Shown: positions 250 to 22,208, counted from the stretch's first letter. The stretch: 58,979 nt of DNA from an uncultured beta proteobacterium (GCA_903912485.1 CAIWHR010000076.1:1-58979), one strand, 5' to 3'. Translations and numbers: made by a program. The notes: generated by a model not told the origin, from the letters alone.

Positions 250-2040
250 GTGGAAGGGATTCAAGTGACCGGCGCTTTGCCGGCATTCGCGCCTCCCCAG
301 TCGCCTGCCGAGACCCCGAAATGGAGAACGATCATCTTGAACGCAACCCAGTCCGTCGACCCCAGCTTTCCTGACCGCGCCCGCGCTGCGCTGCTCGCCC
401 ACGCTTGCGGAGATCGCTATGGCGCACCGCTGGAGTTCGTGGAGGACCGCAGCGTGCGAACCCAAGAGGTGGTGCTCGGCCATTGGACCGACGACACCCA
501 CATGTCGCTTTACTTGGGCGACGCCATCCTCGCGCACGGCCCGGGATCGCTCGACCACGGCCGTTTCGGCACCGCCACGGGCAACGCGTTTGTCCGCTGG
601 CTGCACGACCCCCTGACACCATCGACCGCGCCCGGTTCGACCTGCATCGCCGGCGCCCGCGCGTTCGAGCGCACTCGCGACTGGCGACAGAGCGGCGTTG
701 CGTCGTCCGATGGTTGCGGCGCGGTGATGCGTGTCGTACCTCTGGCCCTCGCCTATCGCGGCGCGGAACTGCTGGAGGCGGCCCGCATCTCAGCGGTGGT
801 CACCCACGCGCATCCCGACGCACAGGAGGCGGCAATGGCCGGTGCGTGGCTGGTGAGAAAGGTGTTGGAAACCGGTGTCTGGAACCGCGCTTGGGTCGAA
901 GAGGCGATTCGCGGGCTGCAGGGGCCCTGGGGGCAGGGAGGTAACGTTGCCGAGAGCTTGCTGGCCGCCATCGCCTGGGCTCGTCGCGGAGAAGAATGGT
1001 TGGACGAGGAGTGCATTCCGCCGGGCGACGGAGGCTGGCGTTCTGGCAGTGCGCTGGGACTCGCGGTCGCCGCTGCGCTGCGCTGGCACGACGATCTCGG
1101 GCTCGCGGTAGAAAAGGCGGCGCGAATCGAGGGAGACTCCGACTCGGTTGCCTGCCTGACCGGGGCACTGCTCGGCGCGGCCGGTGGCACCAAGGCCATC
1201 CCGCCAATGTGGCTGGCAACATTGCCCCAACGGGCCGAGATCGAGGGCCTTGCGGATCGATTGCTCGCCCAAGCCGACGCCGTGCCGCCCAGGAATTCGC
1301 CGCTGGTCGTGATCGGGGACCTGCACGGACATCTCGACCTGTTCGAGCAGATCCTGGCGAAGATCGACCAGTTGTACCCGACGGCCCGCATTGTGACGCT
1401 GGGCGACTATGTCGACAACGGCCCCCAGATACCCGCCCTGTTGGATCGACTGGTCGCGCTCAAGGCCGAGCGACCCGACCGCTTCTTTCCCATCCTCGGG
1501 AACCACGACTTGGCGCTACTGCGAGCGCTGGGCTGGCCCGCGGAGGAGCCGGATGGGCAATGGTACGAACATTGGAAGGCGCGCTACTGGAGCACGGGGG
1601 GCGCCACGCCAGAAGCGTATGGCGCGGACGGCCTCGAGAGCTTCCGGGATGCCTTCCCGCCGGCACACTTCCGCTTCCTGGCCTCGCTGCCCTGGTTCTA
1701 CGATGACGGCGAGCATTTCTGCGTGCACGCCGGCCTGCACCTGGGTTCCATCGATCGCCAGCGCCCCGGGCTCGATGCCAAGGCACTTCCCGGAGAACGG
1801 CTGCACCTCCCCGACGCGATCCGCAACAAGGGCCTTGCCACGCTGAACGACTCCGCCTGGGAGCGGGTGGTCGTGAGCGGCCACACGCAGCTTCGGGATA
1901 GGTGGGTGTTTTCGGCGTCGCGCCGCGTCTGCGTGTCGGCGACGTCGGACCACGGCGAAGGGCTGCTCGCCGTCGTACTGCCTGAGCGGCGGTGCTGGTG
2001 GGCGAGCGAGGGGACGGTGGTGGAAGTCACCGTGGTGTGA
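250..2040 (+). CDS. ADP-ribosylglycohydrolase (ARH/DraG-like) fused to calcineurin-like metallophosphoesterase
   Basis: 596-aa ORF. The N-terminal half has ARH signatures (ACGDRYGAPLEF, HWTDDTHMSL, EGDSDSVACLTGALLGAAGG). The C-terminal half has the metallophosphatase motifs in order (VVIGDLHGH, LGDYVDNGP, LGNHD, VHAGL, VSGHT). Start is ambiguous: GTG 250, GTG 265 or TTG 337 (GGAGA 9 nt upstream). Confidence 0.85.
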   Translation: MEGIQVTGALPAFAPPQSPAETPKWRTIILNATQSVDPSFPDRARAALLAHACGDRYGAPLEFVEDRSVRTQEVVLGHWTDDTHMSLYLGDAILAHGPGSLDHGRFGTATGNAFVRWLHDPLTPSTAPGSTCIAGARAFERTRDWRQSGVASSDGCGAVMRVVPLALAYRGAELLEAARISAVVTHAHPDAQEAAMAGAWLVRKVLETGVWNRAWVEEAIRGLQGPWGQGGNVAESLLAAIAWARRGEEWLDEECIPPGDGGWRSGSALGLAVAAALRWHDDLGLAVEKAARIEGDSDSVACLTGALLGAAGGTKAIPPMWLATLPQRAEIEGLADRLLAQADAVPPRNSPLVVIGDLHGHLDLFEQILAKIDQLYPTARIVTLGDYVDNGPQIPALLDRLVALKAERPDRFFPILGNHDLALLRALGWPAEEPDGQWYEHWKARYWSTGGATPEAYGADGLESFRDAFPPAHFRFLASLPWFYDDGEHFCVHAGLHLGSIDRQRPGLDAKALPGERLHLPDAIRNKGLATLNDSAWERVVVSGHTQLRDRWVFSASRRVCVSATSDHGEGLLAVVLPERRCWWASEGTVVEVTVV

Positions 2041-2368
2041 GTGGAGAATGGCCGCATGGACTGGAGGCCCGATCCATGAGCACGAAAAGGAAGAATCGAT
2101 CGTCCGGGGCTGCCGACACGGCACCGGCGGAGAAGATGCCTCTGTCGATCCGCGTGGCCGGACTACTAACGCACACGCCTCGGCCTCGACGAGCCGTCGA
2201 GGCCGAGAACCTGATGCCGCGCTGCCAGTTCGCGCCGTTCAAGGAGCGAGGCGTCCGTGCCAGGATGAATATCGTTCACCCGGAAATGCTGTTTGACGCC
2301 GTCCAGCCGCCCCTGCCGACGATGGAGACGAAGGCATCACTCGCGATCGTCCCCATGAAACCTCCGAA

Positions 2369-3301
2369 TCAGCCCTCTGCGGGCACCGCGAATGCCGCGA
2401 GGTGAACCACCTTGGTATCGACGACCAGCGCTGCCGCCGCAGTGTCCTCGCTCTCGAAGCGCACATCCACTCCCTCGGCCAGCGCCTCGAACCGGGACTC
2501 CGGCGCCAGCTGCAACTTGGCGAGGAACGCACGCACGTCGACATCCGTCGGGAGCTTGGTCGCGCCTGACGACTGTTCTTCGACCGCATCGAGTGCGTAG
2601 CTGCCGAGCACCTTGCGCAGGAACTTCGCGAACGTGGCCGAACTGTCGAAAAGCTCGACACCGCGAACCTTGCCGTTGATGGCGAACAGCGCGCCAACCT
2701 GCTTGGACTGAGCTTCGAACGCGGATTCGTAGCTCGCCAGGTCGCCCTCCCGATGCGTGTAGATGTCGCTCATCGCCTCGGTGGGCGAATCGACCTCCAT
2801 CGCGCGTTGCTTGCGCTCGATGTTCGCCCAGACCCGCCTTTGATCGCTTGCCCGCGAACCGGTCTCGCGCATCCCTGTCGATACATCCTGCATCTTCGCC
2901 GCGCGGGCGTTCGCGTACAGGCTGCGCTTGGCCGATCCGAACTCGCGTGAGCGATACGACCAGCGGCCGCGCTCCACGCAGGAGACGGGGATGACGACCT
3001 TCTGGTGCCTGCCGACCAGGATGGTCAGGTTGAGGATGCGATTCTGCCGCGCACCGACGAGCTCCTCGCCGTCGACGAGCAGGATCCTGCGGTCGGAATC
3101 GTTGACGAAGCTCAGCTCGGGGACGCTGCCCGACTCGGAGACCTCGGTGATGTGCGCGGCGCCCGATTCGAGCGCCTCGTCCAGCGTGAGATAGTCCGCG
3201 CCTACGTCAGCGTCCGCGAGCAGCGGAACGACAGCCAGGTTCCGGAATGCGGTGGTCTCGCCGAGCTTCAGGCCGGCAAGGGTGTGCGAAAGGGTGTTCA
3301 T
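2369..3301 (-). CDS. ARPP-1-like uncharacterised protein (family call from memory)
   Basis: 310-aa ORF, 78 nt downstream of the WYL gene on the same strand and convergent with the ARH fusion. Motifs FRNLAVVPLL, VGARQNRILN and VIPVSCVERGRWSY match my recollection of the uncharacterised ARPP-1 family (ARG- and rhodanese-phosphatase-associated protein). Not verified by HMM. Confidence 0.7.
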   Translation of the reverse strand: MNTLSHTLAGLKLGETTAFRNLAVVPLLADADVGADYLTLDEALESGAAHITEVSESGSVPELSFVNDSDRRILLVDGEELVGARQNRILNLTILVGRHQKVVIPVSCVERGRWSYRSREFGSAKRSLYANARAAKMQDVSTGMRETGSRASDQRRVWANIERKQRAMEVDSPTEAMSDIYTHREGDLASYESAFEAQSKQVGALFAINGKVRGVELFDSSATFAKFLRKVLGSYALDAVEEQSSGATKLPTDVDVRAFLAKLQLAPESRFEALAEGVDVRFESEDTAAAALVVDTKVVHLAAFAVPAEG

Positions 3302-3379
3302 CGTGTCCTCCGATACGCGGGCGCGCCTTCTCGCCCGCCATGAAGAACAGTTTGCACGGCCCGCGGCTCATGGCGTGAG

Positions 3380-4366
3380 CTACGCAGAATGCCTTTCGTA
3401 CATTCGAGCGGCGGCATCGTGCCGCGCCGCCACGCGCTGGCGGAGTTCGGGCGGCGCCGCGACCTCGACGTTCGCGCCGTGGCGAAGCACGTCCATGATC
3501 AGCTCTTCGTCGGCCGAGTAGGGAACTTCCAGGATGTACGTGCCATCGGGTTCGAACCGGCTGCGCTGGTCCTTGTGCCATTGCTCGTGCGCGACCCAGC
3601 GCGCCGAGACGGGATTGAAGCGCAGGACGGCCCATAACACGTCCTTGCCGGAATAGATTCCGTAGCCGGCCGAGATCACCGCTTCCAGGTCCTCCGCGGA
3701 CACCTCCTTCGCCGCATCGTCGAGCTTCTCGGCCTTCCCGATCGCGTCGAGCGCGAAGCTGCGGATGCCCTCGCGCAGGTGGCACCAGGTGTCGAGATAC
3801 CACGTCGACCGATAGTAGGTGAGACGCTGGGGCGACACGGTGCGCGCGGTGTGCTGCCCACTCGCGCGATTGAAGTGCCCGAGCCGCAATCGCTTGCGCT
3901 CCAGCAGTGCGGACGCGGAGGTCTGGAATGTCGCGTTGTCAGGGGCGCGCCCGCCGATGCGTTCGACGTGAACGCGGTTCTCGATGTCGGCAAGCCGGTA
4001 GTCCGTGCTGCGGTCGAGCAGCTTTTCCAGCCGAGCCATGAGCGGCTGGATGCTCGGCTCCAGCAGCCCGGGCTGAATGTCGGCCAGCAGTTGCCGCATG
4101 GTCATCAGCGCGTAGATCTCCGACGGGTTGAACCAGAGCCCCGGCAACTCGAACGTCGGCCCGAGATTGACGCTACCCGTCAGCGTATAGCCGCCCTTGT
4201 CCCGGTCATACTCGATCGGCGCGTTGAACGTGCTCTTGAGGTATTCGAGGTCCCGCTTGAAAGTGGCGAGCGAAACTTCGAGTTCATCCGTGAATTGCCT
4301 AGTCGTGACGACCGCTTTCTCTCGCAGGAGCTTCACAATCCTGTAAAAACGATCGGATCTGTCCAC
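3380..4366 (-). CDS. HTH-WYL transcriptional regulator (BrxR/CapW/PafBC-like)
   Basis: N-terminal HTH (RFYRIVKLLREKAVVTTRQFTDELEVSLATFKRDLEYL), WYL-type segment (RTVSPQRLTYYRSTWYLDTWCH) and a C-terminal extension. The ORF opens at TTG 4420; I prefer GTG 4366 (MDRSDRFYRIV). Divergent from the operon starting at 4595. Confidence 0.8.
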   Translation of the reverse strand: MDRSDRFYRIVKLLREKAVVTTRQFTDELEVSLATFKRDLEYLKSTFNAPIEYDRDKGGYTLTGSVNLGPTFELPGLWFNPSEIYALMTMRQLLADIQPGLLEPSIQPLMARLEKLLDRSTDYRLADIENRVHVERIGGRAPDNATFQTSASALLERKRLRLGHFNRASGQHTARTVSPQRLTYYRSTWYLDTWCHLREGIRSFALDAIGKAEKLDDAAKEVSAEDLEAVISAGYGIYSGKDVLWAVLRFNPVSARWVAHEQWHKDQRSRFEPDGTYILEVPYSADEELIMDVLRHGANVEVAAPPELRQRVAARHDAAARMYERHSA

Positions 4367-4594
4367 AGTCGGGCGCCTTGGGAACGTGGTCGGGATCGCG
4401 GGTGGCCTCCCGGACAGCAAGTCTATCCGCCTGGCTCACGATGGGCCACCTCGAGCCTTGTCGCATGGGATATGAGGCCCGTCCCGGCGAGTCTGGTGCC
4501 ATCGTGATCGCAACACCGCGTGGCGTCAGGTTCTGTCGCTGCGCCGGCGCACACTCAAGGCTTGAGCGACCGGCAGGCCAACCAGGGTGAGGGC

Positions 4595-6406
4595 ATGGAG
4601 AGAGGGATCGGGAACGGTGGGCTGGAATTCGTTTCGTCGCACGGCGAAATCACAGGCTCCGTCAACATCGTAGCCGGCACCCCGTCGCAAATCGCCGACT
4701 TGCTCGACGCGCAGGGCGGCGTGTCGTTGTCCGCGCCCGTCGGCCAATCGATCCTGACCCTCGCCTGCGCGCGATTGCGCGCCCTGGACCTTCACGACTC
4801 GCCCGATCTTTGCGTGCTGGATCTGCGTGACGCCGCGGCCGAGCTGCACCTGACGATAATCGGCTGCCCGCAGTTGCGCACCGTCCGATTGCCCCCGCAC
4901 GGGGCGGCCTTTGTGCACGTCGACGGTGGGGCGGCGGCGCCGGAACTGGCACTGGAAGGCGGCGTCGAGCAACTGGACGGCTGCTGGACCGCTGGCCGTT
5001 TTCTCAGCCGGGCGCCCCGCGGCACGCTCTGGCAGGGTGCCTGCATCACCGCGGTCGACGCCGCGGCGCCGGCGAGCGGCCAACCCGTCGCCGCGCTCCA
5101 GGTGCTGGTCGGCACCAGCTCCTGCCCGCCCGATGTGACGCTCCGGGTTTCGCCGGGCGTGCGCACCATGCTGCTCGTGGCTGTCGACGGTATGCAGCAT
5201 CTTGTCTGGACCGGTGACGCTGCCGATACGCTCGAGATACTCGACGCGCCGCAACTGGAGTCGATCGAACTCAACGGCGCCCTGGCGCACCTCCTGGTCG
5301 GCGGAAGCCCGCGCCTCAGCGCCATCCGCGGCAACGCCCGGGGCCGGCAGCTGCAGGTCAAGGACGGCAGCGGCACAAGGCTGGAACTGCATGTGGACTG
5401 GCGCTGCGACGAAATGATCGTGGCGGACAGCGACATCGGCAGTCTGCGCGTTGCCTACAGTTGCGATCTGCAGTTGCTTCGCTGCGCACGGCTCGACAAC
5501 GTGTCGCTGGTGCACGGTTGCCGGGTCAGCTGCGAGGGCAGAGTCCCACCCGCACTGATCGGCGTGGCCAGAGTCTTCGTCGACCGGGGCCTGCTGAAGA
5601 ACCTGGAGCAGCGTTGCCTGGCTGGCGACTGGGATATGTGGCGGCAGCTGCGGGAGCTGCTGCCACTGGCAAGCGACCGTGCGCACGCGCCGTTGGCGCT
5701 GCAGGTGCTGGACAGTCTGCTTGCCGCCGGGCTGGACCCGGAAGCCACATGGCGGGCTCGAACGGATCTCTATGCCCGGCACCTCCTGCGCGACCCGGGT
5801 CCTACGGTGCAACCGGAACCGCGGCACCTCGCGCGTGCACTGCAAAGCTGGGCATGGGATCTGCCGGACGATCTGGGCGCCGACGCGTGGCGCGCCGACT
5901 GGCGCATCTGGCAGGGCTGCCGTGGCCTGCCCGCCGCGCAAGACTATCAGGTCGTGATGGCGCGCGACCTCGTCAGCCTCGGGAGCGCCGCGAAGGCCCT
6001 GGTGCCCTGGCTCTTCCGGGCGCCGCAGCTGTCGCAAACCGTGACCAACGAGTTCCTTGTGGATCTCTGCAGGTGCGCAACGGAGAGCGCGACGACGCCG
6101 AATCTCGCGGCTTCGCTTGACCCGGCGGTCGCATCGTTTCTGCGCAGCCGGCGGGACGGCGCCGAGGAATCCGGCACGCTGGTCGAAGCGGCCCAGGGTT
6201 ACGTCAATCGACACGGTTCGCGGCAGGCCGTGCTGGAAGTGATGGCCGACGAAATCGAACGCCAACCAACGGCCACGCGCATCCGGTTGCTCGACCTGAT
6301 CGCGCACCCGCCCGATCGCCCCGGCAGCATGACCGTGAATCAGTTCAGGACCGCTGCCCGAATCCTGGTGATGAGCGGCCGCCTGCCAGCAGAGGCGATG
6401 CACTGA
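4595..6406 (+). CDS. LRR-like repeat protein with helical C-terminal half, function unknown
   Basis: ORF 4520-6406; ATG 4595 preferred. The first ~330 aa show irregular LxxLxL repeats (LRALDLHDSPDLCVLDLRD, LEILDAPQLESIELNG, LQLLRCARLDNVSLVHG). The rest is Leu/Ala/Arg-rich and looks helical. Ends 80 nt upstream of the AAA+ gene on the same strand. Confidence 0.65.
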   Translation: MERGIGNGGLEFVSSHGEITGSVNIVAGTPSQIADLLDAQGGVSLSAPVGQSILTLACARLRALDLHDSPDLCVLDLRDAAAELHLTIIGCPQLRTVRLPPHGAAFVHVDGGAAAPELALEGGVEQLDGCWTAGRFLSRAPRGTLWQGACITAVDAAAPASGQPVAALQVLVGTSSCPPDVTLRVSPGVRTMLLVAVDGMQHLVWTGDAADTLEILDAPQLESIELNGALAHLLVGGSPRLSAIRGNARGRQLQVKDGSGTRLELHVDWRCDEMIVADSDIGSLRVAYSCDLQLLRCARLDNVSLVHGCRVSCEGRVPPALIGVARVFVDRGLLKNLEQRCLAGDWDMWRQLRELLPLASDRAHAPLALQVLDSLLAAGLDPEATWRARTDLYARHLLRDPGPTVQPEPRHLARALQSWAWDLPDDLGADAWRADWRIWQGCRGLPAAQDYQVVMARDLVSLGSAAKALVPWLFRAPQLSQTVTNEFLVDLCRCATESATTPNLAASLDPAVASFLRSRRDGAEESGTLVEAAQGYVNRHGSRQAVLEVMADEIERQPTATRIRLLDLIAHPPDRPGSMTVNQFRTAARILVMSGRLPAEAMH

Positions 6407-6486
6407 ATGCAGATCCCGACGCTGCGACCACATGCTCCCGCCTCCCGCGTACGCGTAAACGCCCCAGAACCCGAGGAAACCTCGCC

Positions 6487-7677
6487 GTGAACCACCTCAC
6501 CGCCAACATCGAAGAGACGCGTCAAGTGCTGGAGCACCAGATCCGAACCCTGTGGAGCAATCCGGACCAGGCGGTCAACGTCGCCCCGGTGATGCTGTGG
6601 GGGCCACCCGGCGTCGGCAAGAGCTCGGTGATTCGCGACCTGTGCGCCGACCTGGGGATCGGCTTCATCGACATTCGCCTCGCGCAGCGCGAGCCCGTGG
6701 ACCTCAGAGGACTGCCCGTCCCGGAAGGGGATCAGGTGCGCTGGCTGCTGTCGTCCGAATGGCCGCGCGATCCCGCCAGTCGGGGCATTGTGCTGTTCGA
6801 CGAGCTTACGGCCGCCGACCGGACGCTTCAGGTGGCGGCCTACGAGTTCATCCTGGATCGCCGGTTGGGCGACCTCTACCGCGTGCCGCCGGGCTGGATG
6901 GTCTGCGCAGCAGGCAACCGCAGCGGCGATCGGGCGGCGGCGATGACGCTGTCGAGCGCGCTTGCGAACCGCTTCTGTCACCTCGAACTGCGTGCCGACC
7001 TCGACCCCTGGTGCCACTGGGCAATCCGGCGCGCGCTGCATCCGGACGTCATCGCCTTCCTGCGGTTTCGTCCCGAGTGCTTCTTCCGCATGGAAGGGGA
7101 CCTTGAGCGTGGCTGGCCAAGCCCACGAAGCTGGGAGCGGGTGGCACTGACCGTCGAGCACGGCGCAAGCCTGAGCGAAACCGCACTGGCGCTGATCGTC
7201 CACGGTTTGGTCGGACGTGGTGCCGGCACCGAATTCCTGGCATTCAGGAAGCTGGCCGGCGAGGTTCCGGATGTCACCAGGCTGCTGCGGGGCGATCTCG
7301 TCGTCAAGCTGCCCGAACGTGCCGATCAGCGCTATGCCCTTTGCGCCGCGCTAGCCCATCACGTCTGGCGCGCACCGGAGGCCGAACGAAAGGATTGGAT
7401 GACGAATTTCCTGCGGATCGGCATGCAGTTGCCGAGCGACTTCGCCGTCATGGCGATGATGGACGCCATGCAGCAGCTCGAGGACGACCAGGACCCCGAT
7501 CGGGTCCGCCTGCTGTTCGAGAGCCAGGCGTACGAAGGCTGGCGGGAGCGCCACGGGTCCGTGATGGCGCACCAATTCCCGCACGCAGTGACCGACGAGG
7601 ATGGTGCCCGGACCCGCGCCGTCGCCAACGCGGATGCCGGCGAACTGGCGCGCGCGCTCGCGGCTGCCGGGACATGA
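6487..7677 (+). CDS. MoxR-type (AAA_5-like) AAA+ ATPase
   Basis: GTG start with GAGGAA about 8 nt upstream. Walker A LWGPPGVGKS, Walker B IVLFDELTAAD, sensor-1 AAGNR. Stop overlaps the next start (ATGA). Confidence 0.85.
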   Translation: MNHLTANIEETRQVLEHQIRTLWSNPDQAVNVAPVMLWGPPGVGKSSVIRDLCADLGIGFIDIRLAQREPVDLRGLPVPEGDQVRWLLSSEWPRDPASRGIVLFDELTAADRTLQVAAYEFILDRRLGDLYRVPPGWMVCAAGNRSGDRAAAMTLSSALANRFCHLELRADLDPWCHWAIRRALHPDVIAFLRFRPECFFRMEGDLERGWPSPRSWERVALTVEHGASLSETALALIVHGLVGRGAGTEFLAFRKLAGEVPDVTRLLRGDLVVKLPERADQRYALCAALAHHVWRAPEAERKDWMTNFLRIGMQLPSDFAVMAMMDAMQQLEDDQDPDRVRLLFESQAYEGWRERHGSVMAHQFPHAVTDEDGARTRAVANADAGELARALAAAGT

Positions 7678-8972
7678 CCGGCACACCTGCCCCCCTCCCG
7701 GCAACCGCAACCGACCGGATCGCAGGGGCATCTCCGGAACCCCAGACCTTGCGGATCAGGTGCCCCTCCAACGAGGAAGCCGCAGCGAAAGAGCGCTGGC
7801 GTCGAGTTCTGGAAGAGGATCGAACGCGGCTGTTGCTGCACCATCCGTTCACCGCGTCCCTGGCGTTGCAGCTCGACGTCATTCCGGTGGTGGACTCGCG
7901 CCTGCGCTCCGCCGCGACCGATGGTCGACGCATTTTTGCGCACATCGGATTCCTCGCCGCCCTGAGCCCCGACGCGAGGCTGTTCGTGCTCGCCCACGAG
8001 GTGTGGCACTGCGTCGCCGGACACTTCGTCAGGCGGTTCGACCGCGACCCCCACGCCTGGAATCTGGCAGCCGACCACGAGGTCAACGCGCTGTTGCAGC
8101 GCGACGGCCTTGCGATGCCGGGGGACGCCGTCTACTTCGGCTGGTTGGACGGCGAAAGCGCGGAAGCCGTCTACGACTGGCTGCACGGGACGGATGCGCC
8201 GCCCACCGCTGGCATGGTCCAGTTCGATGACCACGCGCCCGGGGGCGCAGCATTCGGGCGGCCGGCGTCAGGCGACGCCCCGATGTCAGCGGACGCAGCG
8301 CAGGTGCAGGACCCGGACTTCACCCCCCAGGCCGGCGGCGAGGCGCTGAAGCGCGACTGGCAGGAGCGCCTTGCCACGGCCGTGAACCGGTCCAAGGGAC
8401 GGGGAAACTTGCCCGAACGGCTGGAATGCCTGGTCGACTCCTTGCTGCGCCCCAGCCTGCCGTGGCGCACCCTGCTGCAGCGCTTTGTCCAGCGGACCTA
8501 TGGCGGAGCGAGATCCTGGCATCCACCGTCGCGTCGCCACATCTATCGCAAGCTGTGGTTGCCAGGGATGAGAGGTCAACTGCTGCGGGTGATGGTTGCC
8601 ATCGACACCAGCGGCAGCACTTCGGAGGTGCTGCCGCGGTTCATGAGCGAAGTCAGGGGGCTCGTCGGGGAATTCGATCGCATCGAGATCACGCTGGTGG
8701 AGTGCGACGCCGAAATCTCGCGGGTCCGCACGTTGAGCGCAACGGACGACGTGGACGGGCCCGAGTTCATGTCGATTCTCGGTGGCGGCGGCACCGACCT
8801 CAGGCCACCGTTCGAACTCGCCGCCAAAGACCCGCCGGCCTGCCTCGTCTACCTGACCGACGGCTTTGGCCCGATCCCCGAGTCGCCGCCGGGCTTCCCC
8901 GTGCTGTGGGTGATGCCGGACGACGAATCAGACCCGCCGCCGTGGGGAGAAATTGCGATCATCGCAGCGTGA
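7674..8972 (+). CDS. HExxH metallopeptidase-like + vWA (MIDAS) protein, DUF2201-like architecture
   Basis: ATG 7674 overlaps the AAA+ stop; the part of the ORF-track entry upstream of it (from 7341) is Arg/Gly-rich and not used. HExxH in LAHEVWHCVAGH. vWA/MIDAS motifs VAIDTSGSTS, GGGGTDL, LVYLTDGFG. Confidence 0.85.
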   Translation: MTGTPAPLPATATDRIAGASPEPQTLRIRCPSNEEAAAKERWRRVLEEDRTRLLLHHPFTASLALQLDVIPVVDSRLRSAATDGRRIFAHIGFLAALSPDARLFVLAHEVWHCVAGHFVRRFDRDPHAWNLAADHEVNALLQRDGLAMPGDAVYFGWLDGESAEAVYDWLHGTDAPPTAGMVQFDDHAPGGAAFGRPASGDAPMSADAAQVQDPDFTPQAGGEALKRDWQERLATAVNRSKGRGNLPERLECLVDSLLRPSLPWRTLLQRFVQRTYGGARSWHPPSRRHIYRKLWLPGMRGQLLRVMVAIDTSGSTSEVLPRFMSEVRGLVGEFDRIEITLVECDAEISRVRTLSATDDVDGPEFMSILGGGGTDLRPPFELAAKDPPACLVYLTDGFGPIPESPPGFPVLWVMPDDESDPPPWGEIAIIAA

Positions 8973-9147: not shown

Positions 9148-10170
9148 ATGGCCATGACCGCCAAGCACATCAACCGTATCAACCTTCAACGCGCGATCGT
9201 CGAGATCCTGCCCCTGCAAGGCGGCAAGATGCCCGGCCTGAAAGCCGCCGATATCTGCAGCAGCTTCGAGGAGTACTTCCCCAGAAGCAAGAGCGATGGC
9301 GCGAACCGCCGCAAGCTCGAGCGCGAGCTTAAAGATCTCATCGAGGAAGGTCGCGCCGTCGTCGGCGACGTCAAGGCCAGGCCCAATCTCTACCTGCGCC
9401 CCGCTTCCGAGGACGAAGACGAGTTCGATTCGCTGTTGTGGGCCTACACCGTCGGGCACATCGAGGACCATCTCGAGTCGGTGCTTCCGCACAAGAAACT
9501 CGAAGCCGCCATCAAGCGGCTTCAGGACCCGGATGCGGGCGTACGCCTGAGCGACAGCAAATTCAGGATCGTTCCCGACACCCTGCGCCTGCTACCGGCC
9601 GCATTCGATCCCGCGGTCCTTGCGGCCATCCTCCAGGCTCTCATGGAAGGAAAGACACTGAACGCAGTCTATCGCGACAAAGCAGGCAAGCAAACCCGCC
9701 CGACTCTGCACCTGCAAGCTGCACTTCATCGGGGGCCACGCTTCTACGTCTTCGCGCTCAAGAACGAGGAAACGGAGCCTGTCCGGATGTACGTCCTGCA
9801 CCGTTTCACCAGCGCCAGCGTCGGCGATGAGCCGGTGCGCGTGGCGCCAGGCTTCGACCTGGACGAGGCCGAGCGCACGGGCCAGGTCAATTTCAGCAGC
9901 GGCGAGATGACCCAACTTGCAATGCTCGCCCGCGGCTACGTCGCCGACCTGTTGCGCGAGTGCCCGATGGGACGGGATCAGCAGATCATTGATGAGCCCG
10001 CGGGCAACCTGTTCGACTGCCGCGTGAGCGTCACCGTACCCAAGGCGGGACAACTGCTGCGCTGGCTGCTCGGTTGCGGCGACAACGTGAAGGTATTGGA
10101 GCCGCTCGAAATCGCGAAAGCAGTTGCGGCGCAGTCGGGGAAGACGGCGAAGCTGTATGTGGAGGGATGA
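9148..10170 (+). CDS. WYL-domain protein (second putative regulator)
   Basis: 340-aa ORF. N-terminal winged-helix-like segment, central WYL-like segment (RPTLHLQAALHRGPRFYVFAL ... VRMYVLHRF), C-terminal tail (VKVLEPLEIAKAV). Confidence 0.7.
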   Translation: MAMTAKHINRINLQRAIVEILPLQGGKMPGLKAADICSSFEEYFPRSKSDGANRRKLERELKDLIEEGRAVVGDVKARPNLYLRPASEDEDEFDSLLWAYTVGHIEDHLESVLPHKKLEAAIKRLQDPDAGVRLSDSKFRIVPDTLRLLPAAFDPAVLAAILQALMEGKTLNAVYRDKAGKQTRPTLHLQAALHRGPRFYVFALKNEETEPVRMYVLHRFTSASVGDEPVRVAPGFDLDEAERTGQVNFSSGEMTQLAMLARGYVADLLRECPMGRDQQIIDEPAGNLFDCRVSVTVPKAGQLLRWLLGCGDNVKVLEPLEIAKAVAAQSGKTAKLYVEG

Positions 10171-10907: not shown

Positions 10908-13900
10908 CTACACGGCGCCACCGATGACCCGCACGGTGCTCGCGCCATGGCCTTGACGTTCTACCAGTACTTGGACTCCGATACGCTCGGCAAGTCCCGG
11001 GACGTGCGAGATCAAGCCCACCTTTCGTCCGGCAGACTGGACCGAGTCGAGTGCCGACAGCGCGGTCTCCAGCGTCTTCGAGTCCAGCGACCCAAAGCCC
11101 TCGTCGATAAAAAGCGATTCGATCCGCACCTTCTCTGAGGCCAGCGACGACAGGCCCAGCGCAAGTGCCAGCGAGACGAGGAAGGTCTCCCCTCCAGAGA
11201 GCGATGCAGTCGATCGGATCTCGTCGCCCATGTCACGATCAACCGCCTGAAGTTCCAGATCCTGGGTCTTCACCCGTTGCAGTAAGTAGCGAGGTGCGAG
11301 GCTTGCCAGTTCGGCGTTGGCATGCGCAATCAGCAGCTCCATCGTCATGCTCTGGGCGAACTTGCGGAACTTCTTCCCATCGGCCGACCCGATCAGCGTG
11401 TCGAGTTGTTGCCAGACCGTCGCCTCTTTGCGCGCCTGCGCCAACTCGCGGGCCTTGGCCGCGCCCAATTCACGATTCTCGTTGTCTTGGTCGAGCCGCT
11501 GCTTCGCCGCGCCGAGTTGCTGGCTTTGCTTGCCGTGCTGCGTCTCCAAGGTCACGATGTTCGCTTCGATGTCAGGCAAAGGTGCTGCAGGGGCCGGTTG
11601 CGCTTCGTGTGCCAAGAGGTCTTTCTGCCGCTCTTCGAGGGAATTGCATTCGATGGAACGCTGGCGATCGACTTCACTTAACGCTGCCCGCTCCTGACCG
11701 ACCCACTGCTCCTCATGCACGAGCAGGGTGCGCAGCGTCCCAGCGTCGAGCTCCGCGGTAGAAAGAGCTTTTGCAAGCGCGTTCGCAGTGAGTTCCTTTG
11801 CCTGAACGGCTTTGTCGACAGATCGTTGAGCGATCTTGTGCGCCTCTTGTTTCTTGGCGACATCTTCCCGTGTTCGCTTGGCCTGTTCCGACGCGACGTC
11901 CTGGGCTTGATCACAAGCCTTGAGCGCCGCTTGCAACGAAGCCTCGACCTCAGTCGCTGGCCTGCCTTGAAGGACTTCCTGCCGCTTTGCCAGCAGTGCG
12001 CTGCGGTCGGCAGCTAGCTGATTGCGGTCGGCAACGAGGGTATCCCGCTGTTGCGTCGATTGCTTCAGCAGATTGGCCTGCACTTCCCGCTGTGTATCGA
12101 TCTCGGTCAACTGCTTCCTGTTGCTCTCGTAAATCTGCGCGTGTTGCCTGGCTTCATCGATTCGCGCAGTCCATTTCGAAGTGAAGGCCTTCGGGTCTGC
12201 TTCGAGGTCGACCTGCCAGCCATCGAACTCGCCAAGAGCCACGGCGAGGTTCACGAGCGTTCCATCGAGCACTTTCCGGAAGGCGTCCACATCCGCGGTC
12301 GCGTGCCTGCGCTTCTCGAGCGCCGAAGCCACGACGCCCTCGGCCGCCGTGAGCGCGCTGCGCGCCTTTTCGGCGCGGCCGACCGCTTCTCCCTGCGACT
12401 TGCGGGCCTCCGCCGCCGACTTGCGAAGCTGCCCCAAGGCTTGCTCCTGTTCGGCAATGGCCTTGGCCTCTGCGTTCAGATCGAGCTCTCTCGCTTCCAG
12501 CCAGTCTTTGGATTCGAGGCCCGCCGGATCGCCTGCGCCACCGAACGTCTTCCACTGAGCTGCCGCATCGCCCAATTCGGCTTGCCAGCGATCAATCTCC
12601 TTCTCCAGTTCAAGTACCCGACTGGTTCGAGCCTCGGCGCGCGCCGTCTCCGCGGCCTCCCGGTTCTGCAACTCGGTACGACGCTCGGTCTGCGTCCGCT
12701 TCTGTTCTTCAAGAGCGGCAGTCGTCGTTTTGATCGGACCCGTGCCAGGGTGGTGCGTCGATCCGCACAAGGGGCATGGCTCGCCGTCGATGAGCCGGGC
12801 ACGGTGTGCATCGAGGCCGAGCCGTTCGAGCAGGAGGTCGGTTCCGGCCAACTGCTGCTCGACCTCGCGACGGGCCGCTGCGGCCTGGCCGGCCTGCGTT
12901 TCGGCGTCCGTTGTTTCCTTCCTGGCCTTAGCCGCCTCGGCTTGGCGATTCGTGCAATCCTTGTCTGCCTTTGCAGCCCGGTCGCGCTGCTGCTCAAGCT
13001 TCGCGAACTGGATGCGCAGAGCTTCGAGTGCAGTCCGTCGCTCGGCAATATTTCCGGTCGGGTGCTCCGCTTCGGCGGCCTCGGCGGTCCGTACGCGTTC
13101 CAGCGCGGTCTTGACCAAAGCTTCGGCCGCGGTCAACTCCCGCTGTGCCTGTGTCTGGGCGACGACCGCATCTTCGTGGGTCAGCTGCAGGGCAGGCAGG
13201 GCTGTGAGTTGCGTCTTCCAACCGGCATGCGTCTGCTCGAATGCCCTTAACTGTGGCGCAACGCCCTCGTTCCATCCCTTAGCAAGCGCAACGACTGTGC
13301 CATTCGACTTCACCCAGGCCGTCAGCTCTTCCAGCGCCGATGAGACGGTCTCGCGTCGATCGGTCAGAGTCCGTCCTTCCTTTTCCAGAGCCGCAAGCCC
13401 GCTGTTGGCCTCCGCCAGCTTCTTGTCCGTGGCCTCGATGGTCCCAGTCTTCTCGGCAATCGCCTGATCCAGGGACTTCGCAGTGTCGATCTGCGGCTTG
13501 GTCGATACCACCTCGTTGCGTCGCCGGTGCTGGTCCTTCAATGCCTGCGCGAGTGCCGCTGCCGCGCGCTCATCTTCGGTCCGGGCCTGCACCAAGGCGA
13601 CCTCGGCAGAGCCCAGATGCATTTGGGCGGCACCGAGCTCTTCGGCCGTTCGTGTCGCTTCCTTGTCGACAGCACGCAGGGGCTGCACTCGTTCAATGTC
13701 GGCCAGCGCTCGACGCCGCGGCTCGGCCTCGGTCCACCGGCGCGTGGCCGCGACCGAACTCTCACGCGCTTGGTCGAGCTTCTGCCGGATCTCGGCTGCC
13801 TTGGTCCGCCAAGTCTTCTGCTCGCGCAGACCACCGAGCCGGCTTGCTGTGTTGGCGATGATCTGGCCAAGTTCGGCAACGCTCGCCAGGAGTGCGGCAC

Positions 13901-14597
13901 GGGTCTGGGTGTCCATGATCGGGAGGGCCTTTACTGCGTCTTCCTGAAGGCGAAGCGACTCCTCGATCTCCTTGGCCCGGGCATAGGCACGTTTCGATAC
14001 GGCGCTGTAGAGTTCCGTGCCGGTCATGCGTTCCAGAAGCTCGGAGCGCTCATCGCTCTTGGCCTTGAGGAAGGCCGCGAAGTCGCCTTGCGCGAGCAGG
14101 ATCGAGCGGCGGAACTGGTCGAAGGTCAGGCCAACCGCTCGTTCCGTGGCCTCGAGCACTTCGGTCTTGGTGCGCCCCAGTGGCTGCCCAGACTCGTCAT
14201 CCAGCAGCTGTATCTCCGACTGCTGAAGCTTGCCTCCTGCCTTGTTGCGCGCACGCCGCACCGACCAGTTCGCCCGATAGCGGCGTCCATCAGTACCGAT
14301 GAATCGGACCTCGGCCAGGCCTTCGCCCGCACCACGTCGCAGCAAGTTGCGGGGGTCGTGCACGCCCAGCAATTCGTCCGGTCCGTCGGGAATCTGGTAG
14401 CCTGAGTTCGACTCCAGCCGGGGTGTGCGGTCGTACAGCGCCAAACTCAGCGCATCAAGAAGTGTGCTCTTCCCTGCACCTGTGGGTCCGGAAATCGCAA
14501 ACAGGCCCGCCCCGGCGAGCGGGCCAGTCTCGAAGTCGAGGTCGAAGTTGCCGGCCAAGCTTGCAAGGTTGCGTCCGCCGATCCGGAGAATCTTCAT
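10908..14597 (-). CDS. sbcC: SbcC, Rad50-like ATPase subunit of the SbcCD nuclease
   Basis: ATG 14597 (GGAGGC upstream) gives MKILRIGGRNLASL..ISGPTGAGKSTLLDALSLALY (Walker A). Very long coiled coil with a CPLCGS zinc hook. C-terminal LSGGETFLVSLALALGL and LFIDEGFGSLD. The 61 upstream codons in the ORF track are not used. Confidence 0.9.
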   Translation of the reverse strand: MKILRIGGRNLASLAGNFDLDFETGPLAGAGLFAISGPTGAGKSTLLDALSLALYDRTPRLESNSGYQIPDGPDELLGVHDPRNLLRRGAGEGLAEVRFIGTDGRRYRANWSVRRARNKAGGKLQQSEIQLLDDESGQPLGRTKTEVLEATERAVGLTFDQFRRSILLAQGDFAAFLKAKSDERSELLERMTGTELYSAVSKRAYARAKEIEESLRLQEDAVKALPIMDTQTRAALLASVAELGQIIANTASRLGGLREQKTWRTKAAEIRQKLDQARESSVAATRRWTEAEPRRRALADIERVQPLRAVDKEATRTAEELGAAQMHLGSAEVALVQARTEDERAAAALAQALKDQHRRRNEVVSTKPQIDTAKSLDQAIAEKTGTIEATDKKLAEANSGLAALEKEGRTLTDRRETVSSALEELTAWVKSNGTVVALAKGWNEGVAPQLRAFEQTHAGWKTQLTALPALQLTHEDAVVAQTQAQRELTAAEALVKTALERVRTAEAAEAEHPTGNIAERRTALEALRIQFAKLEQQRDRAAKADKDCTNRQAEAAKARKETTDAETQAGQAAAARREVEQQLAGTDLLLERLGLDAHRARLIDGEPCPLCGSTHHPGTGPIKTTTAALEEQKRTQTERRTELQNREAAETARAEARTSRVLELEKEIDRWQAELGDAAAQWKTFGGAGDPAGLESKDWLEARELDLNAEAKAIAEQEQALGQLRKSAAEARKSQGEAVGRAEKARSALTAAEGVVASALEKRRHATADVDAFRKVLDGTLVNLAVALGEFDGWQVDLEADPKAFTSKWTARIDEARQHAQIYESNRKQLTEIDTQREVQANLLKQSTQQRDTLVADRNQLAADRSALLAKRQEVLQGRPATEVEASLQAALKACDQAQDVASEQAKRTREDVAKKQEAHKIAQRSVDKAVQAKELTANALAKALSTAELDAGTLRTLLVHEEQWVGQERAALSEVDRQRSIECNSLEERQKDLLAHEAQPAPAAPLPDIEANIVTLETQHGKQSQQLGAAKQRLDQDNENRELGAAKARELAQARKEATVWQQLDTLIGSADGKKFRKFAQSMTMELLIAHANAELASLAPRYLLQRVKTQDLELQAVDRDMGDEIRSTASLSGGETFLVSLALALGLSSLASEKVRIESLFIDEGFGSLDSKTLETALSALDSVQSAGRKVGLISHVPGLAERIGVQVLVERQGHGASTVRVIGGAV

Positions 14598-15838
14598 GTT
14601 GCCTCCGGGTCGGCCTGGGCCTCGCCAAGCAACTGGTGAAAGGCAGCCAACAAGTCGGCCGGAGGCTCGCCCTCGTGCTCGCGCGCCCAGCGCTGGCGCA
14701 ACACGTCCTCGGGCTGCAGGTCCTGCAGCGTCGTCTTGGGCAACGAGTCGGCCAGCGCCTGGCCGTTCCCGGTGTACCAAGTGGAGATGCGCGCGAGCCG
14801 CACGCCTTTGCCCTCCAGCGCCTTCTCGATCCTTGCGCGCAACGCGGGCTCCGGCTGTACCAGCAACACGGGCACTTCGAGAATCGGTTGTTCGTCAGGC
14901 GGCAGGTTCGCGCGGCTCGCCATGGCCGCCAAGGCGGTCTCGACTTCTTCCAACCGCTTGGGATCGGCCGGCACCCGAAGCAGTTCCACCTTGCGGGGGA
15001 TAAGCTCGTGCGCGACCGACACGAGATTTCCGTCGTCGATGTCCACGACGCAGATTTGGTGCGGGTAACCGATCTCCGCCATCGACAGCGGAATCGGTGA
15101 GCCCGAGTAGCGGATCGACTCCCGGGAGACTTCCTGCGCCAGATGCAGGTGACCAAGGGCCACGTAGGCCAGCGAGCCGGGGAAAATGTCGGCGGGCAGC
15201 GCGTGCTGGTTGCCGCTGAGGATCTTGCGCTCCGAGAGCTCCGAGATCTTGGTGCCAGTCATGTACAGGTGGCCCATCGCCAGCAAGGCCTGGCCCGGCA
15301 CGCGCTCGCGCTCGGCATGTGCGATCGCTTCTGAATACACGCGGCGCACACCTTCGATCAGGGCATCGACGCCTTCGTTCCTGATGACCGGCAGGTCGGC
15401 GGGGCGGAGAAAGGGCATCGCGACGACCTTCACCGCTTCGATGCCAGCCTTGTCCTTCAGTGGCACGATGAGCCGCGCGTAGTCGACGGAGCCGTTGCCG
15501 CCACGCGGCAGGCTACCGACGACGCGAACGTCAAAGGCACGCAGTAGCGGTTCGGGCGCATCCAGGCGCGATGCCGAGTCGTGATTACCGCCAACGAGCA
15601 CGATGTCGAGTCCGGGCACGCGCCCGTGCGCCGCCGCCAGGAACTCGTAGAGGTCGGCCTGCGCTTCGGCCGATGGATTCGAGGTATCGAATATATCGCC
15701 CGCGACCAGCAGCGCGTCGGCCGCAAGCGCTTCCAGCCGCCTGAGCAACCACTTGAAGAACGCCAGGTGCTCGGTCCTCCGGGAGAAGTCATGCAGTGTG
15801 TGCCCGAGGTGCCAATCAGAAGTATGAACGAGCCTCAT
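14594..15838 (-). CDS. sbcD: SbcD, Mre11-like nuclease subunit
   Basis: MRLVHTSDWHLG, GDIFD, GGNHD and GHLH motifs. ATG 15838 preceded by AGGAG. Stop overlaps the sbcC start. Confidence 0.9.
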   Translation of the reverse strand: MRLVHTSDWHLGHTLHDFSRRTEHLAFFKWLLRRLEALAADALLVAGDIFDTSNPSAEAQADLYEFLAAAHGRVPGLDIVLVGGNHDSASRLDAPEPLLRAFDVRVVGSLPRGGNGSVDYARLIVPLKDKAGIEAVKVVAMPFLRPADLPVIRNEGVDALIEGVRRVYSEAIAHAERERVPGQALLAMGHLYMTGTKISELSERKILSGNQHALPADIFPGSLAYVALGHLHLAQEVSRESIRYSGSPIPLSMAEIGYPHQICVVDIDDGNLVSVAHELIPRKVELLRVPADPKRLEEVETALAAMASRANLPPDEQPILEVPVLLVQPEPALRARIEKALEGKGVRLARISTWYTGNGQALADSLPKTTLQDLQPEDVLRQRWAREHEGEPPADLLAAFHQLLGEAQADPEAT

Positions 15839-16160
15839 CGATCCCACTCCTGTCGGCGCGCGTCTAAAGTTACCCCAGGGGTGCGCGTTGAAGAATGACC
15901 CAGGGTGGGCTGCCGCCCAGCTTTGGGCGGCGCGTGGTCAAGTGTAGTCGATGGATGGCAGAACGGGGCCTCCTCGGTCGACGCCTTGGATCGCTTGCTC
16001 TGTTCCCGCGACTTGATCCGCGACTTGGCGGTCGCGGTGCTGTGGCGGAAACGGTAGGACTCGTTGTCCAACTTTGCGGCCTGGGCGATAGCGCATTTGC
16101 CAAACGAGACCTGCCTCGTCTGGGATGAGCGCATCGCCAGGTAAGAGTCACCGAGGCCCG

Positions 16161-16352
16161 ATGCCTCAATATTCATTGTCCATTCTTGCGTCCGTCGAGC
16201 GCGCTGCGGCGCTGATCGAGGAGGCTGACGCGCTTGTCGTCGCGGCCGGCGCCGGAATGGGAGTCGACTCCGAGCTGCCGGATTTTCTGGGGCGTGAGGG
16301 CTTCTGGGAGGCCTACCCGGCGCTGGGACGCGCGAAAGTGGACTTCCATGGA
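16161..16352 (+). pseudogene. N-terminal stub (~64 aa) of a Sir2-family NAD-dependent protein
   Basis: ALVVAAGAGMGVDSELPDFLGREGFWEAYPALGRA matches the Sir2 NAD-binding N-terminus. Similarity stops after ..KVDFHG and the frame runs into unrelated sequence before the recD stop. Confidence 0.6.
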
Positions 16353-16485
16353 TGGCGGCGCGGCGTGTTGAATGTCGTCGACATGCAGCAGGGCAGGATC
16401 GTCGACCTGACGGGCAAGGCAGCAGGGCGGCGATCGGGGGGTGGCACCAATTCGGCGTCCACCCGGAAGATGTGGTCAACCAGGT

Positions 16486-21500: not shown

Positions 21501-22208
21501 CGCCTTCAGCGGATTGAGTTGACGCAGCGTCTCTCGCTTCGCCGCGGCAATGGCCACCACCGGGGCTGCCGCCGGCGCCAACAGCTTCGCATGCGGCAGC
21601 AGACGCTCGATTTCGTCCAGCAACGCAGCCGGCGACTTCCACCACTCCCACACTTCCTTGGCTGCTTCCGCGTCCAGCGGGTACATGAAGGCACGCCAGT
21701 AATCGCGGGCGACTTCCCTGAGCAACTCCTTCTGGTCGGGCTCGAGCCGCTGCGTGAACAGCGCGTCGCTGTCGAAGGCATGCTCGCGCAGCATGCGGTT
21801 GCACCAGCCGTGGATGGTGGACACGGCCGCCTCGTCCATCCACTCGGCGGCGAGCTGCAGTTTGCGCGCGCAAGCCGGCCAGGCGTCGGATGGGTATTGC
21901 GCGCGGAGGTCGCGCAGGAAGTCGTCAACCGCGCTCAGGCTCACGCCGCCACTGAAGTAGCGGGCGGCCTCGGCCAGCCGGGCGCGGATGCGGTCGCGCA
22001 ACTCCTTGGTCGCAGCGTCGGTGAAGGTGACGACCAGGATCTCCGGCGGCGTCAGCGATCGGGGGAACGCCGCATCGCCGCCGTGACCGAGGACCAGCCG
22101 CAAGTAGAGCGCGGCGATGGTCCAGGTCTTGCCGGTGCCGGCGCTGGCCTCGATCAGGCGGCTGCCGCGCAGGGGAAACTCGAGCGGGTCGAGCGATGTC
22201 GCGGTCAT
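18549..22208 (-). CDS. recB: RecB, exodeoxyribonuclease V beta subunit
   Basis: 1219 aa. UvrD-type helicase N-terminus (IEASAGTGKTWTIAALYLRL) and C-terminal PD-(D/E)xK nuclease (GFIDLIVEHEGLYYVLDYKSN). Overlaps the recC stop and the recD start. Confidence 0.92.
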   Translation of the reverse strand: MTATSLDPLEFPLRGSRLIEASAGTGKTWTIAALYLRLVLGHGGDAAFPRSLTPPEILVVTFTDAATKELRDRIRARLAEAARYFSGGVSLSAVDDFLRDLRAQYPSDAWPACARKLQLAAEWMDEAAVSTIHGWCNRMLREHAFDSDALFTQRLEPDQKELLREVARDYWRAFMYPLDAEAAKEVWEWWKSPAALLDEIERLLPHAKLLAPAAAPVVAIAAAKRETLRQLNPLKAPWLQWCNELRQLFDDSQSKKLFSGQKLNSRNRGNWLDAIKAWAEDPGFAPLVLTDAAWWRLSPEGIAEIWTVGTPPAHPAFAALAALRPQLAALPTARNDILCHAAHEVVKRFAAAQERLAQMGFNELLTRLDAALAGPNGARLAATIRTQFPVAMIDEFQDTDAIQYRIFNAVYQVEDNDQGTAIVLIGDPKQAIYAFRGADIYTYLEARKKTPGRQYTLSCNFRSTHAQVAASNRCFEMAECRAGEGAFQFRRDGDDPVHFVAATANGRQDALTAEGAAVAAMTVWRLPMPENGEPMSKTAYRDVMADICASEMVRLLNLGHDNQAGFAGEDTMRALRPADMAVLVNTGTEANLIRRALADRNVRSVYLSDRDSVFQRPEAFDLQLWLTACAEPDDGRALRAAMATTTLGLGWAALDRLNHEEIAWDDAVLQFRGYRECWRRQGVLPMLRRLLHDFAVPTRLLAQGGSGERSLTDVLHLAELLQQVSTLLDGEHALIRYLAEQRNDENEGGEGSQIRLESDADLVQVITIHKSKGLEYPLVFLPFACAFRAIKAEDHALKWHDGTGALHVELVNDDTVVSRADRERLGEDLRKFYVAVTRARYATWLGVAPVNELERSAFGYLIGGDAQSGVDTLANGHPEITVVDLPSVHSDRFRGVAQLAREGSARVPIRTVPEHWWIASYSALSTEATPVALGSAETPEEDQYREAAAAESVTPPVTPATPLVAVAARPSVGLLHDFPGGASAGLFFHSLLERMADQGFGQVAVDPVWLRETIARRCAVRGWERWIEPLAKWAQHFLQMPLTNQPPFTLAQTSADRVVAEMEFWVAVDEVDLRQLDDLVCRHIQVGADRPALKRGQLNGMLKGFIDLIVEHEGLYYVLDYKSNRLGQDDAAYSVEAMAKDVLSHRYDLQYVLYLLALHRLLRLRLPGYDYDQHIGGAIYLYLRGSQAPGCGLHADRPPRALIEALDRLFTRSSAKEAA

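Follow-up and report, generated by a model that had tools for sequence, protein, structure and literature searches.

The subject of this analysis is a locus at positions 250-4366 of a 58,979-nt stretch of DNA from an uncultured beta proteobacterium (GCA_903912485.1 CAIWHR010000076.1:1-58979; the whole stretch is referred to as the window), the DNA of which is 67% G+C. On the plus strand, one gene encodes an ADP-ribosylglycohydrolase (ARG) fused to a metallophosphoesterase (MPE), hereafter ARG-MPE. It is convergent with a minus-strand ARPP-1 (DUF6569) gene, which is preceded on its own strand by a gene for a transcription factor with winged helix-turn-helix (wHTH), WYL, and WCX domains. Related loci are denoted by L numbers. 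The features, each with the evidence for it, are as follows.

337-2040, plus strand: ARG-MPE fusion gene; the longest open reading frame (ORF) runs from GTG 250 (Pfam, invariant motifs, AlphaFold2 (AF2) model)
about 385-1206, plus strand: ADP-ribosylglycohydrolase domain of ARG-MPE (Pfam)
about 1300-2020, plus strand: PPP-type metallophosphoesterase domain of ARG-MPE, as assigned by Pfam
2179-2207, no strand: 13-bp inverted repeat, candidate bidirectional terminator (repeat search, RNA folding)
2369-3301, minus strand: ARPP-1 (DUF6569) gene, 310 aa (Pfam, 78-sequence alignment, AF2 model)
3304-3349, minus strand: predicted RNA hairpin in the WYL/ARPP-1 spacer (fold in the window and in L152)
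3380-4366, minus strand: wHTH-WYL-WCX transcription factor gene, 328 aa; the ORF extends to 4420 (Pfam, PADLOC, PDB sequence matches)
4367-4594, no strand: divergent intergenic region with the presumed WYL operon promoter (conservation with L152)
4595-8972, plus strand: adjacent 603-aa/MoxR/DUF2201 operon (Pfam; membership in the system is not supported)

For ARG-MPE, TTG 337 is the probable start: it follows a Shine-Dalgarno-like GGAGA at 322-326 and agrees with a database gene call of 567 aa, and the AF2 model gives residues 1-33 of the longest ORF a pLDDT below 50, consistent with the later start. For the WYL gene, GTG 4366 probably initiates a protein of 328 aa, the same length as its 85%-identical orthologue in L152. 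The inverted repeat between the convergent genes is perfect, with a 3-nt loop and no T-run, and its hairpin folds with z-scores of -4.0 on the plus and -4.2 on the minus strand, none of 200 shuffled sequences folding as well. Scanning the window DNA for sigma-70 and terminator consensus sequences returned nothing useful, including no sigma-70 consensus in 4367-4594.

The original prediction that a complete ARG domain is joined to a complete calcineurin-type phosphoesterase was borne out. In the 596-aa ORF (250-2040), ADP_ribosyl_GH (PF03747) was matched at residues 46-319 over profile positions 1-286 of 287 (E = 1.9e-49), followed in the same ORF by Metallophos (PF00149) from residue 351 (E = 1.3e-13). 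Catalytic motifs were compared across 30 fusion proteins sharing 45-73% identity with that of the window. The ARH residues E62, T80-D81-D82-T83, and D296-S297-D298-S299 were invariant, leaving the di-metal site intact, as were the phosphatase residues D357xH359, G385-D386..D389-N390, G417-N418-H419-D420, H493, and H545. All five metallophosphatase motifs (GDLHGH, GDYVDNG, GNHD, H493, and H545) are thus retained, as in the bacterial-like PPP phosphatases RLPH2, lambda-PP/PrpE/ApaH, and Pnkp; unlike in these, motif II, which reads GDYVDNG across the ARG-MPE family, has Asn for the usual PPP Arg, and the domain lies C-terminal to an ARH domain. In the AF2 model (pLDDT 90), the ARH half matched 2cwc, MJ1187, DraG, Tri1, and ARH3 by fold (TMt about 0.8), and by profile the ARG domain was nearest to DraG and Tri1. 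The fold search with the full-length protein was swamped by ARH matches and so gave no finer classification of the phosphatase, which its sequence nevertheless assigns to the PPP-type enzymes. The nearest solved structure to this half was RLPH2 (5vjv, E = 1.6e-12), then PP1/PP2A, with weaker similarity to ApaH and Pnkp (the latter at 22.6 bits against a cut-off of 750); similarity does not fix the phosphatase substrate, and the phosphorylated ADP-ribose derivative suggested in the original prediction is a putative one. For the fusion protein, the nearest named organisms were Thiocapsa and other Chromatiaceae, at 73-78% identity.

The 310-aa product of the convergent gene, originally placed in the ARPP-1 family, does belong there: PF20208 was matched over profile positions 2-297 of 297 (E = 4.6e-100), at 335 bits against a cut-off of 27. 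In an alignment of 78 sequences, C108, within S-C-V-E-x-G-R-W, and Q86-N87-R88 were invariant. Although the AF2 model is confident (pLDDT 94, pTM 0.92), fold searches of the PDB and BFVD found nothing significant (best E = 0.04, TM below 0.2), and a sequence search of solved structures in the PDB gave no match; as modelled, ARPP-1 remains an orphan fold. The family numbers at least 3,692 clusters among 5.8 billion, about one per million. In plasmid and phage collections, searches with ARPP-1 and ARG-MPE found remote plasmid matches only and none in phages. One such plasmid, from Ca. Fervidibacter sacchari (L160, NZ_CP130455.1, 5605-12762), encodes DUF4258, DUF6569 (a remote ARPP-1, 33% identical), helicase-related, RmuC, and DUF1156 proteins in that order, which is another DNA-directed conflict context.

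The regulator beside ARPP-1 was likewise recognized as predicted, with HTH_11, WYL, and WCX domains identified by Pfam and a WYL match in PADLOC (E = 1.7e-40), the sole match of that program among six local proteins. Its nearest solved structures were PafBC, PafC, and DriD. It shares the three-domain wHTH-WYL-WCX architecture of CapW, BrxR, DriD, and PafBC and, like them, heads a conflict operon, although its sequence shows low similarity to those with solved structures (E = 9e-17 to 1e-3). The gene lies 78 nt upstream of ARPP-1 on the same strand with no terminator-like site in the spacer, and in the orthologous operon of L152 the spacer measures 77 nt and shares 91% identity with it. Given the common strand, the short spacer, and its conservation, the co-transcription of the two genes claimed in the original prediction is likely. 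In this spacer, the ARPP-1 Shine-Dalgarno GGAGGA (3306-3311) is predicted to pair with an upstream UUCUUC in the 3304-3349 hairpin, which was also predicted in L152 (about 7950-8000). Between these two sequences, the inner GC stem shows one compensatory change (G:C to A:U) and the outer stem two changes from wobble to Watson-Crick pairing; the z-score of the hairpin in the window itself (-0.48) is not significant. The ~75 nt leading up to the WYL start show conservation with L152, and the region they occupy (4367-4594) is common to the WYL operon and the opposite 603-aa/MoxR/DUF2201 operon. ARPP-1 is accompanied by an orthologue of the window's WYL factor in L152 (85% identical), L154 (47.5%), and L162 (47%). 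The wHTH-WYL-WCX factors studied so far, DriD, PafBC, and CapW, bind single-stranded DNA (ssDNA) (PMC10853764, PMC11804915, PMC11662680). By analogy with these three, ssDNA would be a likelier ligand of the WYL factor than ADP-ribose, the ligand put forward in 2022 (see below).

The association of ARG-phosphatases with ARPP-1, on which the original prediction turned, was recovered among relatives of ARG-MPE. ARPP-1–ARG–Metallophos triple fusions, with ARPP-1 at the N terminus, make up three clusters of homologues at 66-71% identity to the window protein, and one further homologue is a fusion of ARG and ARPP-1. Across the close clade, ARPP-1 was fused to or immediately upstream of ARG-MPE in 6 of 17 non-redundant loci. 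Since ARPP-1 is so rare, chance adjacency is unlikely, and the linkage of the two is real at the family level. In the more distant clade, a short contig (L079, 2434-3999) carries a phosphatase ORF that runs into a match to the first 130 residues of ARPP-1 (E = 1e-16), which by its sequence is a further independent link. The triple fusions lie in a conserved operon (L006/L074, 7515-11728; L024, 6429-11708; L072; L075), in which a 243-aa regulator with MerR-HTH and receiver (REC) domains and an unannotated protein of ~215 aa precede the fusion; in L024, the order is an ARPP-1–ARG fusion, a second ARG, a separate phosphatase, and a weakly 2H-like protein. Whether the window's ARG-MPE is a truncated form of this operon was also considered and rejected: neither the MerR-REC regulator nor the ~215-aa protein was found in the window by tblastn, and positions 1-250 have stops in all frames.

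Other relatives place ARG-MPE in different company. Homologues of the next tier (ARG 55-60% identical) carry PTP/rhodanese-phosphatase domains instead of Metallophos, which argues that the phosphatase slot was kept while its fold was swapped. ARG-MPE stands alone in defence islands in L001 and L157, and alone also in L159. In Thiocapsa (L010, L011, L015, L019, L023), ARG and phosphatase are separate ORFs in different frames that overlap by ~70 nt, with a second metallophosphatase of ~320 aa downstream of the pair; L019 has a vWA gene upstream, and three copies of ARG occur in T. marina. Directly upstream of ARG-MPE in the more distant clade, 7 of the 11 loci with enough flank carry a conserved gene of ~370 aa that is CARF-like (contexts in L002, 8828-13044; L003; L004, 8792-11827; and L158, 1141-5339; the observation also covers L007, L045, L057, L077, L078, L079, and L082). 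Its product reaches the CARF-type Pfam family Cas_NE0113 in L158 alone; identity between two members is 39%. SIR2_2 adjoins ARG-MPE in L002/L003 and L158 and lies ~4.4 kb upstream in L024.

The ARPP-1 protein of the window belongs to another lineage, sharing 40-46% identity with ARG-fused ARPP-1 proteins versus 69-90% with ARG-less relatives. The neighbours of its five nearest sampled relatives are WYL, NERD, DUF2779, AAA, and vWA genes. L152 has WYL, ARPP-1, and then NERD, beside recC/recB; in L153, a 754-aa AAA protein precedes ARPP-1, with WYL genes nearby; and in L154-L156, WYL is divergent from MerR, followed by VIT-vWA and then ARPP-1. In L161, ARPP-1 is convergent with DUF2779, the same topology as with ARG-MPE in the window, while L162 has ARPP-1 convergent with WYL beside a 306-aa Metallophos protein, DUF2779, and NERD. 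Based on these contexts and on the WYL orthologues that travel with ARPP-1, the conserved core of the lineage is WYL plus ARPP-1, with a variable third gene (NERD, DUF2779, vWA, or AAA). Among the loci sampled, ARG-MPE takes the third-gene slot only in the window. The predicted synteny of ARG-phosphatase and ARPP-1 in other genomes thus holds for the families and fails for the exact arrangement, the five nearest ARPP-1 relatives having no adjacent ARG.

Section 3.8 of Iyer, Burroughs, Anand, and Aravind (2022, Viruses 14:1977, PMC9503650) defines ARG-centric systems, predicted to counter viral ADP-ribosylation, as those with an ARG but without a coupled ADP-ribosyltransferase (ART) or sirtuin. 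As described there, a phosphatase is fused or adjacent in ~55% of cases, usually a rhodanese-phosphatase and otherwise calcineurin-like, HD, or HAD; a Nudix- or WYL-type repressor occurs in ~42%; and accessories include chaperones (vWA, SseB, TY-Chap), restriction endonucleases (REases), and ARPP. The same section describes ARPP as having conserved Cys and Gln and no relatives, lists ARPP plus WYL as a separate two-gene neighbourhood, and predicts, for some ARPP proteins, secretion alongside a sugar deacetylase. The locus resembles this class in having an ARG with neither an ART nor a sirtuin coupled to it, a calcineurin-like phosphatase (one of the alternatives) within the ARG polypeptide, a one-component WYL regulator, an ARPP with the conserved Cys and Gln, and a defence-island setting. 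It differs in that ARPP-1, not ARG, shares an operon with the regulator, in that its ARPP-1 comes from a lineage normally forming a stand-alone WYL+ARPP pair, and in that no conserved chaperone gene occurs at the locus; a vWA-like DUF2201 protein lies 4.4 kb away and is not conserved with either module elsewhere, and no REase adjoins the locus. In agreement with the original prediction that no ADP-ribosyltransferase or NADase lies nearby, the Pfam and PADLOC searches found no ART, SIR2, or TIR match in ~45 ORFs of the window, where the upstream side of ARG-MPE is visible for 249-336 nt only, and some relatives adjoin SIR2_2. Judged by its components, the locus is an intact member of this computationally predicted class; literature searches found no experimental paper on ARPP-1/DUF6569/PF20208 or on any ARG-centric system.

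Much of the arrangement had therefore been described, at least in that section, including the calcineurin-like swap, WYL, an ARPP partner, and the missing coupled ART. The replacement of a rhodanese-phosphatase by a metallophosphatase, put forward in the original prediction, was thus already in print. The present analysis adds the origin of the locus from two modules, the triple fusions with the MerR-REC operon around them, the CARF-like/SIR2_2 setting (a three-gene set with ARG-MPE that section 3.8 does not mention), and confirmation of the orphan fold of ARPP-1. In the 2022 model, the WYL ligand was ADP-ribose; subsequent studies of such regulators point to ssDNA. The erasers of DraT-DraG and Tre1-Tri1 and the proposed DarG3 of DarHTG are likewise ARH-fold hydrolases with an intact di-metal site, DraG and Tri1 being the nearest named families. 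Unlike in DraT-DraG, Tre1-Tri1, and DarTG, no ART was found beside the hydrolase of the window, and its fusion to a metallophosphatase is absent from those erasers.

With a rough probability of 0.45, we favor a reading in which the locus is an inducible module that reverses ADP-ribosylation, with ARG-MPE and WYL/ARPP-1 acting in one pathway. Two modules, the ARG-MPE fusion and the WYL/ARPP-1 operon, would have been joined here. The ARH domain would hydrolyse the ribosyl bond of an ADP-ribosylated host macromolecule, the mark having been written by an enzyme encoded elsewhere, e.g., a phage or toxin ADP-ribosyltransferase. The PPP-type metallophosphatase would then remove or cleave a phosphate on the released ADP-ribose or the de-modified target. 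The WYL factor would hold its operon under ligand control, the ligand most likely being ssDNA from infection or damage by analogy with DriD, PafBC, and CapW, and ARPP-1, enzyme-like with its invariant cysteine, may act at a ribose or sugar-phosphate moiety, either of the ADP-ribose adduct or of its product. Substrate, trigger, direction of regulation, and any anti-phage role are proposals, set against the domains, active sites, gene order, and family-level linkage observed. Arguing for this module are the intact motifs, the presence of the named components of the class, the triple fusions and the ARPP-1 links in the close clade, the retained phosphatase slot, the proximity of the ARG domain to the arginine-specific erasers DraG and Tri1, the conflict-rich window, and an ssDNA-binding type of regulator.

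Several observations weigh against it. ARG-MPE is convergent with WYL/ARPP-1 and so is not co-transcribed with it, and no operator motif common to the ARG-MPE upstream region and the WYL promoter was found, the best being below shuffle expectation. None of the five nearest ARPP-1 relatives has an ARG beside it, and coupling at this particular locus rests on family-level association rather than conserved synteny. The phosphatase half most resembles protein phosphatases, and the settings in which ARG-MPE is alone or beside SIR2_2 and CARF-like genes would fit the processing of a small molecule equally well.

These points bear first on the explanation that the two modules are independent neighbours, a WYL/ARPP-1 two-gene system and a single-gene ARG-MPE brought together in a variable island with no biochemical coupling, which we regard as unlikely but worth serious weight. 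WYL/ARPP-1 recurs without ARG in L152, L154, and L162, the third genes of the lineage being NERD, DUF2779, vWA, and AAA, and its listing as a stand-alone neighbourhood in section 3.8 of Iyer et al. (PMC9503650) agrees with this; conversely, ARG-MPE occurs alone in L001, L157, and L159. Convergent orientation, the strong hairpin between the genes, and the want of a common upstream motif in the searches made are also what independence predicts. Against it, a very rare family is fused or adjacent in 6 of 17 close ARG-MPE loci, and L079 of the distant clade has an ARPP-1-like segment fused after the phosphatase; that ARG-MPE met a second ARPP-1 lineage here by chance is improbable, at below 1e-3 by our rough estimate even with island enrichment.

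Somewhat less probable is that ARG-MPE serves as the off-switch or clean-up enzyme for a diffusible NAD+- or ADP-ribose-derived signal or product of SIR2- or TIR-type enzymes encoded elsewhere, and not for a macromolecular adduct, with ARPP-1 binding or converting the same molecule. The CARF-like gene in 7 of 11 distant-clade loci, with its Cas_NE0113 match in L158, and SIR2_2 beside or, in L024, ~4.4 kb upstream of ARG-MPE would fit such a role, as would the weak similarity of the phosphatase to ApaH, a dinucleotide pyrophosphatase. In the 59-kb window, however, SIR2, TIR, and CARF genes were not detected, the nearest characterized ARH enzymes, DraG and Tri1, act on protein-arginine adducts, and WYL factors of this type are known to sense ssDNA rather than nucleotides.

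The same regulator is central to a third explanation, to which we assign a low probability, lower again than that of a small-molecule substrate. Here, an ssDNA-sensing WYL factor would induce ARPP-1, while ARG-MPE would strip ADP-ribose off the bases or phosphate ends of DNA or RNA, its Pnkp-like phosphatase trimming the terminal phosphate that remains; the locus would then serve in repair of, or defence against, nucleic-acid ADP-ribosylation of DarT-like or phage origin. Two DNA-damage regulators that bind ssDNA, PafBC and DriD, are the closest to the WYL factor, and the ARPP-1 lineage has the nucleases NERD and DUF2779 as neighbours and, in L152, recC/recB; HIRAN partners also speak for this explanation. 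Within the window, recBCD and sbcCD lie 7-22 kb away, and the remote plasmid-borne ARPP-1 occurs with a helicase and RmuC. An ARH-fold protein has also been proposed, from structural similarity, as the antitoxin module DarG3 of a DarT DNA-ADP-ribosylating system (PMC13069673), and the phosphatase matches weakly over the whole Pnkp phosphatase domain. This evidence is all contextual, however: recBCD, differently arranged from locus to locus, may be nearby by coincidence, the Pnkp match falls well short of its cut-off, and DNA and protein targets look alike at the level of sequence.

Finally, that ARPP-1 is the missing writer or toxic effector, a new-fold cysteine enzyme that installs or traps a ribose or ADP-ribose adduct on a macromolecule with ARG-MPE as its eraser or antidote, would explain why ARG systems have no recognizable ART, the repeated ARPP-1–ARG fusion, the WYL control, and a hairpin that hides the ribosome-binding site, but it is very improbable, as most ARPP-1 genes have no ARG partner and some ARPP proteins are predicted, in section 3.8 (PMC9503650), to be secreted with a sugar deacetylase, where NAD+ is unavailable.

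On the other side of the 4367-4594 region, a fast-evolving 603-aa protein (4595-6406, plus strand) heads an operon that also encodes a MoxR-like AAA+ ATPase (6487-7677) and a DUF2201 metallopeptidase plus vWA-like protein (about 7731-8972). The 603-aa protein had no Pfam, NCBIfam, or PADLOC match and no homologue in a word-indexed search; an exhaustive search recovered a small, quickly diverging family of 136 representative clusters, mostly of 570-630 aa. The operon was considered as a part of the system and rejected, none of its three genes recurring in ~160 related ARG/ARPP-1 loci. A second MoxR-like/DUF2201 pair in the window (31126-34294, minus strand) has a counterpart in L162 (3729-6957) at 90% and 85% identity; this adjoins ARPP-1 and WYL directly, whereas the window pair is separated from them by 27 kb. 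Just downstream of the DUF2201 gene, a second WYL+WCX protein (9148-10170, plus strand) is encoded, 24% identical to the first and 31% identical to the WYL protein near ARPP-1 in L161.

Farther into the window, sbcC, sbcD, recD, recB, and recC form a block at 10908-25729 (minus strand), 7-22 kb from the locus. In L152, WYL/ARPP-1 is directly beside recC/recB (L152, 1-6133), an arrangement unlike that of the window. The proximity to recBCD may be fortuitous; alternatively, the surroundings of recBCD may act as a hotspot for integration. A 1,021-aa protein with MazG, PLD, and ResIII helicase domains (36302-39367, plus strand) was classified by PADLOC as type IV methyl-directed restriction (E = 2.6e-96) and is preceded by a HIT-family gene (35903-36292, plus strand). 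The window otherwise holds HipBA and integrase and transposase remnants and, together with the type IV restriction-like gene, the second WYL, and the MoxR/vWA pairs, is rich in conflict genes.

The ARG-phosphatase is a shuffled module found in at least three settings, with ARPP-1, with CARF-like and SIR2_2 genes, or alone, and this distribution constrains its possible role. Bacterial counter-measures to ADP-ribosylation written by invaders are predicted and so far unproven, and ARPP-1 is a widespread family of thousands of clusters with a confidently modelled orphan fold. The locus offers a compact, intact set for a first biochemical test, comprising an eraser-phosphatase polypeptide, a regulator, and ARPP-1, and the triple-fusion relatives are strong grounds for assaying the three activities jointly. 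If ARPP-1 does act on ribose adducts, it would represent a new catalytic fold, and if the ARG-centric class is validated, it would constitute a new arm of bacterial immunity.

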